A DNA stretch of 64,000 bases from Catajapyx aquilonaris (GCA_000934665.2 KZ538585.1:1-64000), one strand, 5' to 3'; numbered from the stretch's first letter, positions 1,169 to 46,092 are shown. The notes: generated by a model not told the origin, from the sequence alone. Numbers and translations are program-made.

Positions 1169-1295
1169 TGACGTCAGAGAGGGCAACGTTTCGAAATCGC
1201 CGGCACGTGTATGGCACTTTGGCGGGAATAAACACATCACACACACACACACACAGAGACCCCTCGAGACGGGTGTGTCGAACACAACATCAGTC
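1169..1295 (+). promoter_or_regulatory. Candidate Pol II promoter: CRE, E-box and arthropod-type initiator
   Basis: TGACGTCA 1169-1176, CACGTG 1204-1209, Inr TCAGTC 1290-1295, followed by a consensus donor 77 nt after the Inr A. Confidence 0.55.
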
Positions 1296-1368
1296 GCAGT
1301 TATACGAGTCAGACGCAGGCTACTGTATACGTCAGATGGGTCCGTAGAACGTCCCGAAAGAATTCGCG
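1292..1368 (+). other. Candidate non-coding first exon
   Basis: Starts at the Inr A (1292) and ends at GCG|GTGAGT (donor 1369). Its only ATG opens a 3-codon uORF (ATG GGT CCG TAG). Confidence 0.5.
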
Positions 1369-1429
1369 GTGAGTTTGCGGATTTTTTCGCGCGATATTAG
1401 ACAGTTGCTTTTAGTGTGCCATCGTAAAT

Positions 1430-1810
1430 ATCAACTACTTTAGTCAAAAATTACAACTACTATTAGTCAAACCTTAGTCGAAATTTGCTAATACAGCAGT
1501 AGCCAAAATAGTAACTACAGTAATATCAGTCAGAATTAACTAACATCAGTCAAAACTTAGCTATTACAGTAGTCAGAATAGTGACGTACATTACTTCAAA
1601 ATTAACTGATGCAGCAGCCAAAATAGTCACTTATAACTATATTAGTAAAAAATTAAATCGATACAAGTCAAAACGTTAACTAGTATCAGTCAAAACCTGG
1701 TTAATACAGTAGCCAAAAATAATAACTTTCACTAGTCAAAAGTTAACTAATGCATAGTCAGAATAGTGACATATTAGTCCAAAATTCACTACTTATAGTC
1801 AAAAATATTG
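1430..1810. repeat. Degenerate AT-rich minisatellite (TAGTCAAAA/TAACTA motifs)
   Basis: Recurrent AGTCAAAA and TAACTA words at roughly 20-bp spacing. Confidence 0.7.
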
Positions 1811-2604
1811 GCCGATATTAATAATTGGTTTGCGATTTTGAGTTGTTTTTTTTTGCAATAAGCTTATTACTCGATCAAGAACTGTCTATATCGCAGAAAC
1901 GAAAAATTGCACGACTTTGGTGCAACCTGACACATTGTTGCCATTGTGACGTCAGGAATATTTTCCGACTGTATGAAAATTTGCGAATATTTTCTGCAGC
2001 TTTTTTAAAAAAAAGTTTAGGAGTAATTAAGAAGCATCTTAGTGGCCCCAAACTGCTGTTAAAATATTAGTTGGCTTCACGCCCTGTCCATTCATTAAAC
2101 CCCGAATTGTTGTGGGTGTGAGCCTCTCTCTAATTGGTCCGCATGCTCTTGGAAGCCCATAGGTCCCCTTTCAAAAAGCGTCGATATTTTCACCACCACC
2201 ACACCCCAACCCTCCACACAAAAACCGCTTTTCTTTCTGGTAATTAGCGCGCCAAATCACACACCCTCTGAATGGAGGGGTTGGCCTCCCAACACTTTTT
2301 GTGCGTATATCCATGTTGTACAACAGTTTTGTTGCGCTAGCTGGAATTTTCCGGAGCCTAATTGGAATCCGGGTATACAGCCCAGGATGGAAAATATATA
2401 TATATATCAGCCGGCGTTTAAAAAGCGATAAGATACACACTGTATTGTAATATATGCTCTTGTTATTCTGGATCTGCGCAGTGTTTTTCTCCCCGTCTAC
2501 GAATCGAGTTTGAGAATCTACATACGGTTCGGAAAATATTGGCCAACATTTACGAGCACTGCTGTTGCTTACCCCCGAATACCAACTGATCAACTACAGA
2601 TTTT

Positions 2605-2880
2605 TTTTCATTAGCTCAACCGAGTGCGCAACACCATTCGCGCACGGTTGTCCTTATATCAATGATACCTAGTAAGCTCTCTATGTTGTTTATAAGCGAT
2701 GAACGTATTTCCAACGCTACGATTGGTGGTGGGCACAAATTGGCCAACGTTTGCGACGTTTTCAAGGTTCTGAACGAACTTCAATGCGAATTATTATTTG
2801 GCTCCTGGTGAGAACGTTGTTGTCAGAATGATGGAGCTGCGCGAATGTGGGTGCGCACTCGGTTGCGCTCGTCAAAAATC
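2605..2880. mobile_element. MITE family B, copy 1
   Basis: Imperfect TIRs CAACCGAGTGCGCAACACCATTCGCGCA / TGCGCGAATGTGGGTGCGCACTCGGTTG; internal TATTTCCAACGCTACG shared with the copies at 49720 and 63381. Confidence 0.75.
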
Positions 2881-2990
2881 ATACACAGAATTCACAATCC
2901 GTGACTCCACCCCGTAGGTTGGCCTAGGTGCTATTATAGCTTTCACTTTCCCAGAACAATTAGAGGGCAGTATAGCGTCCCGGTGGACTT

Positions 2991-42425: not shown

Positions 42426-42533
42426 AAAAATACCGAATAATATTATTCGGTATATTATTCGGTTCTTAAAATAAGACTACATAATTGGAAAATTTAAAAA
42501 AAACACTAAAATTCAATTGAAAGGGGAGCGCCA

Positions 42534-42618
42534 TGATGGATTATTCACGCCAGCTGCGCATGCGCATTCCAGCCAGCCTGTGAAATGCGCATGCTCTGCT
42601 GGAGTGACAAATCCATCA
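42534..42618. repeat. Imperfect ~85-bp hairpin
   Basis: TGATGGAT..TCAC.CCAGC.G.GCATGCGCATT / AATGCGCATGC.C.GCTGG.GTGA..ATCCATCA. Confidence 0.65.
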
Positions 42619-45029
42619 CATTTTTTTACTCCTTGAAATTTATCCTTCATTTTTTCCCCGAATTTTTTTTAACGAACTTGTAGCATGTTAGGACATATCT
42701 GGCCGCGTTTCAAGTGGCCCTCGGATGCAATGCATGCCTCGGTATTGCATAGCGGCAATCAGCTTTCGCTTCCCAGCAACCTCCGCATGCAGGCCGATGC
42801 CCTCAGGAAAGGTCTGGGTCACTCGAGTGACATTTGAAAAAATAAAAAAAATAAACGGGGGCTTCCCATTGGCCAGCCTCTCTCACCAGCAACCTTTCTA
42901 GGTCACGTAAGAGCTACGACCCCTTTTTATAATATGTGCTGGGGCCTGCAAGTCAGGAAGACTTCGAGGGGGAACGTTACAACAAAAAAAAGGAGACTTG
43001 TTGCATCATGATTCTCAATGTGAAAGTCAACCAGTACCAAGTTACGTCTCAAGAGAAGGTCCAATTAATTCGTGTGACGTCATTTGAGTGGGTCACACCT
43101 TTTTCTTGTCGTCTCGTCTCGCAGCCATTCCCATTGCGAGAGGTGGAAAAAAGGGAGCAGGAAAAAAATTTGGGTATAAATAATTGTATCTTTGAAAGTT
43201 TGAGAAGAGGAAAGGTCAGTTTCGTCATTTGCCTTTTGGCAGAATGGACACCCTTCTTTTTTATTGCAATGGGTGGGCGGAAGGTGGAGGACTAGATTTG
43301 TGAAGAAGAAGAAAAAAAATGAGGAGGAGGAGGAAGAACAGCGGGTCGTCCAGATCTGCTTGGCTTCCTGCTTATGTCTGCAAAGTGAAAGTGAAAAGAT
43401 TAAATGGAACACTGTTCACATGCTCTTGGAAGGAAGGGGGGGAAGGGCACTCGACCGATCATTTTTGCTGGATTTTGCACGTTTTTTCCCCCCTTGAAAA
43501 TTTAAACATGGCCACGTTCCCATCGCAGTGATAATTCTTTTTAAGTAATACAGATTTGAATGAAGTCGCTGTAAAAATTATGCGTGACACGTTCAGCATT
43601 ACATGCTATTACATAATAGAAAGACATATATTAATGTGTAATTTGATAAAATATTATTCGTGTATTGCCAGAAGGTAACCGTTATTTTGTATTTAAGTTA
43701 TGGGTAGTGACTGAATCAATAAGTGAAAGAAACATAAATTTAATCCATAAGCTGCATTTTAGTGCTTTTGTCCACTCATTGTACACCGTAATATTATCGA
43801 TTTTTTGAGCATAAATTTTCTCCCAATCGACCAATTTTAATAGCCTATATTCTTAAAAAAGTCTGCGCCAATTCGAGCCAAATGTGATTGAAATATTACT
43901 CTAAAATAGCGCTAGTTAGAAGACTCAAACATGACAGGATACATCAGCTAAATTTCGCGTATATTTAATACAGCGGTAGTCGATATCATCCCGTGGTAAA
44001 GCCCTTTTAGCGTTTCATAAATCAGTTTGCATCATACATTGTGATGTCTTAATTCACTAAAAAAGGGTCATGCAACACGTGATAATAAAAGCCCTGAGGG
44101 CTGCCCGAGGTCGTGCGAGTCACAATGCTGCCTCTTTATCCTCCAGAAATATGCGTCATACTTTTTTTTGTTTAATTTGAGGCATATCAAAAGTAATTAC
44201 GTTATATATTATCTGTGATTCACTCATAATGTACCTTTCTTTGGCTGGTAGCTGCCATTGACCTTTTACCTTGGCCCTTTGTCCTGTTGGTTTTGAAAGC
44301 TACTCTGACCGATAGAGTGCAGACTGCGCAAAAATATCATGGCACAAGCAATGCTGCACATGCATCGACACGACTCGAAAATTCCAGACAATTCCTTGAC
44401 CGTGAACAGGTATATCGCAATACCCGTATATAAAAAGGCATGAACTTTGGCCTCTCTATAGTGATCTTGCCATAATGTGCGTCGTCTTAATCGCTTCTGT
44501 GAAATGCACTTCTCCTTTCAAAAAGACTGAAGTGAAGTCCTGTCAAAAAGAGAAACTTTCTCCCCGCACCCCGGAAGAGAAACCCTTCCTGCTTCTTCTT
44601 CTTCTTCCTTCTCCATCCCTGCATTCAAGTCTCTCCCTCATCTCCCAGAGGCTGAAGAATGGTCAGGGATCTTGCCTCTCTTTTTTCTTTTCTTCCTTGC
44701 CCAGCAAGGGGCGGCCACGTGTCATTTTTTGTGTGTTCACTTCTTGGTAAGGAAGAAGAAGAAGAAGAGTCATCTTGTGCCCCACTAGTCGGAGGAGAAA
44801 GTGATCGTGCTGTGTCAGATCCCATTATAGGATCACTATTGGTTCCGCCCAAATTCAAAAGGAGACAGGTCATCCACCTGGAGAAGTGTTGGAATGTTTT
44901 TGAGAAAAATGCTATTATGCCGGATTTCCCCCCATAAGCTATTCCTTCCTGTTGCTGAGGCAATGACGAAGCCTGCGCAATTTCGGCCAATATGTCTACA
45001 TCAACGACACATTAAACATTATTTTAAAT

Positions 45030-45380
45030 ATATTTGTTGGCAAATATGAAGCGAATTTTTCGCTGACGAAACTGAAGCAAATACCTGCAGATTCGGACAA
45101 AATGCCCAAATTAACAACACATGAAACATGATTTTGAATTTATTTATTGGCTCGCGTGAAATGAATTTTTTGTCGACTATTTTTGACCACATATCATAGT
45201 CTTCAATAATTTCGTGCCACTTTTGCCATTACGCATTATTGCGCATTTATATGTTGGCTCGTATGAAGTGAATTTTTCGCCTGCGAAACTGAGGCAAATA
45301 CCTTCAAAATGCCCAGGTAAACGACATATAAAACATGATTTTGAATTCATTTGTAGGTTCATGAATTTTTTGTCGACTAA
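45030..45380. repeat. Diverged direct duplication (~150 bp)
   Basis: TGTTGGC..TATGAAG.GAATTTTTCGC..CGAAACTGA.GCAAATACCT..AAACATGATTTTGAATT..ATGAATTTTTTGTCGACTA at ~45035 and ~45252. Confidence 0.8.
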
Positions 45381-45704
45381 ACTATTTAATGGGTACATAT
45401 CCCATTCTTCACGAATCGATTTATTAGTTGGTGCCATTTTTGGCAATTCTTGATGGTTGATGTGCAATTTGGGCATTCGATAGATATTCATTTAATATCT
45501 ATGGGGTATATCCTATATACTATTTGAGGAAGCCACATGTGGTGGGCATGAAAGAGAAAGAGGGAAGAAGTAAAAAGAGAGAGAGAGAAAAGAGGAGGAG
45601 GGTTGGTTGCTAAGGTGAGGTGAGGAGGAGGGGGTAGTAGAGTAGTAGTAGCGAAGGTGAGAGTGGGGCCAAGTGGGCCTGGGCCTCGGCCATGCCTTGG
45701 GCTG

Positions 45705-45899
45705 CCAGTCGGTGCCCTACTTTGGTGCCGAGCGGCTGCCCTTTTCCATACACTCCGGGATAAGTAGTGACCTTAAAGGATTACCAAGGTGGAAATAATT
45801 ACACAAAAAGAGAGAAGTGCGCGAATGTGTGACTATAGTGAAGTAGTGATTTATCTGTGAGTCCCAGGAGACCAACATGTTGTGGGAGGCACGTCATAG
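45705..45899 (+). other. Candidate further alternative first exon
   Basis: Purine-rich upstream tract, Inr-like CCAGTC at 45705, donor TAG|GTGAGT at 45900. CAACATG at 45877 gives MLWEARH (phase 2). Confidence 0.35.
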
Positions 45900-46092
45900 G
45901 TGAGTTTTCTGGGTCTCTAGGCTACCGGTGCAACAAGGGTTAATCACCCCTCGCGTGGGTCTCATGCTCCTCTAGTACAGACCCCACAAAGTCCAATCAA
46001 TATTGATCAGGATCATATCAATTAATATCTATAAATAACGTTCAGTCATAGTTATCCAAAAGTTCGTCTAAATTTGTGCACGATGACTACCT

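Follow-up and report, generated by a model that had tools for sequence, protein, structure and literature searches.

The 64,000-nucleotide (nt) stretch KZ538585.1:1-64000, called the window here and numbered from its first letter, raises the question of whether two plus-strand sequences in it are recursive splice sites. In Drosophila such sites are known as ratchet points: a strong 3' splice site runs directly into a consensus 5' splice site. A preliminary description of the window had gone further and proposed that several promoters feed a chain of ratchet points. Our analysis makes it fairly probable that the two junctions, 13271|13272 (RP1) and 40847|40848 (RP2), are recursive splice sites of the Drosophila type in a long plus-strand intron. 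The ratchet anatomy in the earlier proposal held as far as sequence goes; its four promoters were unsupported, being pairs of motifs found at chance level and lacking a downstream promoter element (DPE) or a TATA box.

Anatomy and improbability of the two composites

The motif CAGGTRAGT was found in the window at 13269-13277 and 40845-40853 only, both times on the plus strand and both times as CAGGTGAGT. As the preliminary description had stated, each of these two occurrences follows a strong pyrimidine tract, with 18/20 pyrimidines before the site at 13269 and 17/20 before that at 40845 (counted over the 20 nt preceding the -3 position). The acceptor half of RP1 (13241-13271, plus strand) contains TTAAT twice as a branch-point motif, the A falling at 13244 (-28) in one and at 13248 (-24) in the other; the tract, TT at -6/-5 and CAG at 13269-13271 follow. 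Its donor half, GTGAGTAT, occupies 13272-13279 on the plus strand, immediately after the AG. The acceptor half of RP2 (40817-40847, plus strand) contains a CTAAC motif with the A at 40820 (-28), the tract, TC at -6/-5 and CAG at 40845-40847, and its donor half, GTGAGTAA, lies at 40848-40855 on the same strand.

In both RP1 and RP2 a strong 3' splice site thus directly abuts a perfect GTGAGTA donor (CAG|GTGAGTA), and the motif YTAAY sets a presumptive branch A, by motif evidence, at exactly -28. A YTAAY with its A at -36 to -21 was found upstream of just 8.9% of the plus-strand AG sites in the window. The idea that the two sites are copies of a repeat was rejected, since blastn of their flanks gave no match of one to the other and no similarity to the rest of the window; they are therefore independent occurrences. 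Exact-pattern scans, run on collections without a eukaryote set, gave no matches in metagenome contigs for an RP1 29-mer and an RP2 27-mer, and none in genome contigs for an RP1 22-mer.

The bare CAGGTRAGT motif is at chance level: it was found 2 times, the expectation was 0.90, and at least 2 copies turned up in 25 of 100 dinucleotide shuffles. The surroundings of the motif are another matter. Among the 242 AGGT sites of the plus strand, at least 17/20 upstream pyrimidines were present in two and an extension to GTRAGT in three, and both of the tract-bearing sites fell within the three extended ones (hypergeometric P = 3/29161, ~1e-4). None of the 221 minus-strand AGGT sites had both the tract and the GTRAGT extension, so that strand has no comparable site. 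Seen from the acceptor side, 10 plus-strand sites qualified as strong (YAG preceded by at least 17/20 pyrimidines), and two of these ten were followed by GTGAGT.

The same result was obtained when the composite was scanned for as a single IUPAC pattern (20 Y, one N and AGGTRAGT, with up to 3 mismatches) against a null of 100 shuffles. The expectation was 0.06 matches per window, the maximum in any shuffle was 1, and the scan recovered RP1 and RP2; it also picked up one minus-strand T-run, listed twice, with a broken core. From base counts, AGGTRAGT is expected ~2.35 times per strand and 0.44% of plus-strand AG sites have at least 17/20 pyrimidines upstream, giving an expected ~0.01 such motifs with a tract per strand. 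The preliminary description had put the chance of composite sites at fewer than 0.01 per window, which was the right order of magnitude on both counts. The two branch motifs at -28 add a further probability factor of ~0.008. It is the context and not the 9-mer that matters, because the 9-mer occurs at its chance frequency and the composite is far beyond chance.

These figures also bear on the view that both composites have no function, lie in intergenic or untranscribed DNA and came to notice through the screening of very many windows. Such a coincidence would agree with the chance-level count of the 9-mer, with polyadenylation signals and acceptor-like strings that have no strand bias, and with the departure of RP2 from the fly consensus at -5. 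We nevertheless hold it to be unlikely, given the joint probability of tract and donor, the extra factor contributed by the two branch motifs, and the position of both sites on the same strand at a spacing typical of recursive segments (10.1101/006163).

Judged by their make-up, RP1 and RP2 are very probably functional acceptor-donor composites on the plus strand, and use of both as ratchet points of one long intron is the reading we favor. Their anatomy and improbability were computed; from them we infer that the region is transcribed, that the sites are used and in what order the steps run. An upstream exon, which may be the 77-nt unit with its last letter at 1368 or may lie outside the window, would be spliced to the AG of RP1. 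This joining would place GTGAGT right behind the exon and so rebuild a 5' splice site, which would next be spliced to RP2, and RP2 in turn to an exon beyond 64000. First recognition of RP1 would probably occur by exon definition through a second donor 77 nt downstream, and the cryptic recursive splicing exon (RS-exon) so defined would then be skipped.

The intron would be removed in this way in pieces of ~12, ~28 and >23 kb. The preliminary description had given segments of ~11.9, ~27.6 and >23 kb, and the coordinates return 11,903 nt (1369 to 13272), 27,576 nt (13272 to 40848) and 23,152 nt (40848 to the window's end at 64000). The first of these lengths presumes the donor at 1369 as the upstream partner. 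The middle one is only approximate, because an assembly gap of 209 N (23563-23771, flanked by G20 and G18 runs) and a perfect (GA)124 microsatellite (22362-22609) lie between RP1 and RP2.

Several points weigh against the ratchet-point reading. RP2 has C at -5 and so breaks the TT rule of the fly sites, although this is a Drosophila rule and may not hold elsewhere. Downstream of RP2, no donor with at least 7/9 consensus matches was found within 300 nt. Some look-elsewhere discount is due, as the two sites were picked from a very large scan. The asymmetry between the strands gives weak support to plus-strand transcription, and that the window is mostly one very long plus-strand intron is itself a presumption. 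The DNA, which contains an interstitial (CCTAA)n array, may also come from outside the drosophilids.

The second donor of RP1

The stretch following RP1 (13272-13354, plus strand) is a candidate cryptic RS-exon: 77 nt (13272-13348) that run up to another donor, gtg|GTGAGT, which occupies 13349-13354. The length of 77 nt is not a multiple of 3; frame 1 is open across it and holds an ATG. The GTGAGT core of the downstream donor at 13349 is identical to that of the RP1 donor, and partial inclusion of 13272-13348 in messenger RNA (mRNA) is possible because both donors are equally strong in core. Beyond RP2, the next GTAAGT is at 41228, 380 nt away.

Joseph et al. (PMC8605326) describe a short cryptic exon of ~50 nt, closed by a downstream donor, as the means by which ratchet points are recognised in flies. 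That donor usually loses to the regenerated donor of the ratchet point, and the stronger of the two usually settles whether the exon is skipped or included. RP1 resembles the fly RS-exons outlined there in that another donor close to the consensus lies 77 nt downstream, and the cryptic exon it would bound is short and not a multiple of three. It differs from them in that the ratchet-point donor, usually the stronger one in the fly cases of that text, has a core only equal in strength to its competitor, and RP2 differs in having no such donor within 300 nt.

The equality of the cores is a reason to consider that expressed exons begin at the sites, as RS-exons of the Ubx mI/mII type or at dual-specificity splice sites, and that these are not silent zero-nucleotide ratchet points. 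The stretch 13272-13348 would then be included in some mRNAs as part of the 5' untranslated region or as a coding microexon. The RP1 donor has no clear advantage over the second donor, and if the stronger donor usually decides inclusion, as PMC8605326 has it, skipping would not be assured; the open frame 1 with its ATG points the same way. On the other hand, the numbers given there for Drosophila are >500 intronic ratchet points and <50 expressed RS-exons, RP2 has no matching donor within the 300 nt downstream, the 77-nt length is not divisible by 3, and no Pfam signal was found anywhere near among the reading frames scanned. On balance we judge expressed exons improbable at these sites and retain the silent ratchet points as the preferred interpretation.

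Direction of transcription, proposed promoters and window content

Donor-like strings were more frequent on the plus strand of the window than on the minus strand, both for GTRAGT (28 versus 17) and for GGTGAG (23 versus 12). Within 1-13271 the GTRAGT counts were 8 on the plus strand and 0 on the minus strand; two of these eight, at 6069 and 6231, are a local duplicate with identical flanks. This excess may represent donor-like enrichment downstream of a plus-strand start. As indicators of transcription, AATAAA (72 plus, 80 minus) and strong acceptors (10 plus, 14 minus) showed no strand bias in the window.

GC skew was positive over most of the window, largely due to long G runs on the plus strand. 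Runs of at least 8 G numbered 17 on the plus strand and 4 on the minus strand, reached up to 20 nt and stood in unrelated contexts between 5491 and 49259 (e.g., at 23543, 23772, 35330 and 49246). Several of them adjoin N or the 209-N gap. The excess could be a homopolymer artefact of sequencing or assembly, or a real strand-asymmetric feature.

The preliminary description had listed four units, each running from an initiator (Inr) to a donor, at 1292, ~30477, ~35955 and ~45707. The Inr consensus is TCAKTY in its strict form; a DPE is located at +28 to +32 and a TATA box at about -30. We searched for the strict form and a relaxed form, NCAKTY, 30-250 nt upstream of donors. All four units lie on the plus strand and the strings they are named for exist. 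In unit 1 (1290-1374) a strict TCAGTC, whose A is at 1292, is followed by a body of 77 nt and, at 1369, by the donor gcg|GTGAGT. Unit 2 (30475-30641) combines the relaxed Inr GCAGTC with the donor cgg|GTGAGT at 30636, unit 3 (35953-36124) the sequence TCATTT with cgg|GTAAGT at 36119, and unit 4 (45705-45905) the relaxed Inr CCAGTC with tag|GTGAGT at 45900. The strict consensus is matched in two of the four, at 1290 (TCAGTC) and 35953 (TCATTT).

What did not stand was a signal above chance. A relaxed Inr was found upstream of 18/28 GTRAGT donors on the plus strand and 13/17 on the minus strand, and a strict Inr upstream of 5/28 and 3/17, respectively. When the donor was restricted to GGTRAGT the relaxed Inr preceded 9/14 on the plus strand and 4/6 on the minus strand, and four of those nine are the proposed units. 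None of the four proposed initiators had a DPE at +28 to +32 or a TATA box at about -30, and 0 of the 312 Inr-like sites on the plus strand combined either element with a donor. CpG density, ranked over 400-nt windows, was at the 99th percentile for unit 1, the 94th for unit 2, the 70th for unit 3 and the 11th for unit 4, where local CpG is low. The four units are a hand-picked subset of chance-level Inr-donor pairs, with units 2, 3 and 4 pairing at chance level and unsupported as promoters. Inr-plus-donor strings do not suffice for calling promoters on sequence.

Unit 1 is singled out as the most plausible of the proposed first exons because of its strict Inr, its 99th-percentile CpG density, its consensus donor and the strand excess of GTRAGT in 1-13271. 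The CpG observed/expected ratio of 1092-1492 is 1.29, and 1292-1368 is a possible first exon. A CACGTG E-box at ~1204 and a (CA)n run are also present just upstream of 1292.

The full proposal was that promoters at 1292, ~30477, ~35955 and ~45707 feed one ratchet chain in a hormone-induced gene of >64 kb, with distal transcripts passing two ratchet points and the others one or none, so that isoform timing would be tuned. No feature of the window tied it to a hormone-induced gene; one palindrome scan was made with an ecdysone response element (EcRE) consensus. Inverted AGGTCA-type palindromes with 1 mismatch each were found at 10385, 21355, 25930, 28261, 49152 and 52008 on the plus strand, 6 against 1.68 expected; 1 of 100 shuffles reached 6, in what was a post hoc comparison. 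There were no exact EcRE matches in the window. The palindromes are a lead and not evidence for a hormone link.

Several features noted above are in keeping with the proposal, namely the Inr and donor strings at all four units, the strict Inr of unit 1 with its CpG density in the top 1% and the 94th percentile of unit 2, the 8 to 0 strand count of GTRAGT in 1-13271, and the excess of palindromes resembling the EcRE consensus. Genes with several ratchet points are also known, with four in Antp (10.1101/006163). The architecture is unsupported, however, because Inr-donor pairs occur at chance frequency on both strands and the four units are without DPE or TATA. Such pairs are equally common on the two strands and at donors that had not been listed, no Inr-like site of the plus strand joins a DPE or TATA to a donor, CpG density is unremarkable at unit 3 and low at unit 4, and exact EcRE matches number zero. 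We consider the proposal extremely unlikely. That transcripts from more distal promoters pass more ratchet points is in any case trivial in any multi-promoter gene that has them and is no new mechanism.

We regard as very unlikely, too, a further scheme in which the window would belong to a long gene of a non-drosophilid arthropod with a relaxed ratchet rule that tolerates C at -5. Two or more alternative first exons of a gene responsive to nuclear receptors or ecdysone would there use the sites as shared acceptor-donor hubs, and promoter isoforms would differ in how many recursive steps they undergo and thereby in their processing delay.

The remainder of the window was searched for coding sequence and other features. 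Its G+C content is 42% and its CpG observed/expected ratio 0.84, and this slight CpG depletion fits an invertebrate rather than a vertebrate; the source is probably an arthropod. Pfam profiles were run on 184 open reading frames (ORFs) of the window and no family exceeded its cut-off. Among stop-to-stop ORFs of at least 120 amino acids (aa), the scan covered all 34 without X and left aside six containing X; in the class of 60-119 aa, which has 314 members, it covered 150 and left aside 164. The sole weak match was to Tmp39, at 19 bits versus a cut-off of 28 (61769-62218). The longest open frame, of 231 aa (4983-5678, plus strand), has a start resembling a signal peptide and no Pfam match. It was set aside as probably not coding, as it lacks splice signals and crosses both a G15 run and a (TTG)n tract.

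An Rfam match to transfer RNA (tRNA) at 42019-42096 on the minus strand was marginal (30.3 bits versus a gathering score of 29), and ARAGORN did not recover a tRNA there; the match could be spurious or stem from a repeat of tRNA origin. Because no Pfam domain was found and the tRNA-like match was not confirmed, the window appears to be essentially non-coding, whether as an intergenic desert or as part of a very long intron. At 39477-39570 lies an interstitial, imperfect (CCTAA)n array, which we take to be the arthropod-type TTAGG telomere repeat read on the opposite strand. Tandem arrays with periods of ~40-120 nt were seen at 7933-8293, 15046-15457, 51202-51530 and 56381-58475. All four contain units rich in AACAG(C/T)T / AGCTG(C/T)T and look like a dispersed satellite-like family.

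Relation to known recursive splicing

Duff et al. (bioRxiv 10.1101/006163) reported 197 ratchet points, between 1 and 6 in each of 130 Drosophila introns that measured 11-133 kb; Antp, with four, is an example of a gene with several. The recursive segments were 2.6-63.6 kb long (mean 18 kb), a range within which the segments of 11.9, 27.6 and >23.2 kb found here all lie. According to Pai et al. (PMC6110457), the pieces into which such sites divide introns typically measure ~9-15 kb, and first introns are enriched in the sites. Branch points of the fly sites span -36 to -21 and peak at -30 (10.1101/006163), and the branch motifs of both RP1 and RP2 are inside this interval. Both sites also share the juxtaposition of a strong 3' splice site and a consensus 5' splice site by which fly ratchet points are defined.

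The pyrimidine tract of fly ratchet points is more prominent than that of ordinary acceptors, and TT is present at -6/-5 in 196/197 (99.5%) of them (10.1101/006163). RP1 agrees with every sequence feature of the fly ratchet points, TT at -6/-5 included. In the S1 table of PMC6110457, which lists 539 fly sites, CAGGTGAGT appears in 48 rows and CAGGTAAGT in 27, while CGCAGGT appears in 2/539 rows, neither of them high-confidence. RP2 is atypical by fly standards because it has TC at -6/-5 and because CGCAGGT is this rare in the catalogue.

Set against the zero-nucleotide ratchet points of Drosophila (Ubx, kuz, luna and Antp), RP1 and RP2 have in common the AG|GT juxtaposition of acceptor and donor, the prominent tract and the CAG|GTGAGT core. 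They also share the branch point near -30, a long non-coding setting, segments of ~10-30 kb and the presence of several sites on one strand. The differences are the C at -5 in RP2, versus T in 196/197, that the present sites are candidates predicted from sequence, and that their host gene and organism may lie outside Drosophila.

If the sites are used, they would add to the known cases of recursive splicing, perhaps beyond Drosophila, and RP2 would be an exception proving the fly TT rule at -6/-5 to be less than universal. Taken by itself, the result annotates a long intron in a way that is plausible but not out of the ordinary.

Vertebrates reportedly have RS-exons as well, described by Sibley and colleagues in 2015. 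RP1 and RP2 would resemble these in their setting in very long introns and in regenerating a 5' splice site where an exon, itself defined beforehand, begins. The vertebrate RS-exons differ in being mostly expressed exons, with the choice of donor controlled by the exon junction complex.

In the literature searched, the only evidence for recursive splicing in arthropods beyond Drosophila was a motif-based prediction in locust, described in PMC8892266; a paper on bee elavl2 offered nothing pertinent. A recursive splice site was predicted there in a 230-kb intron of NPF1, with support from RNA immunoprecipitation of U2AF65 (U2AF65-RIP). The locust site differs from RP1 and RP2 in this experimental support, the present sites being predictions from the DNA sequence. 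The two cases share a prediction made from motifs, with a branch point, a polypyrimidine tract and a recursive splicing motif together in a long intron (PMC8892266); the locust is a non-drosophilid insect, and the source of the present DNA may likewise lie outside the drosophilids.

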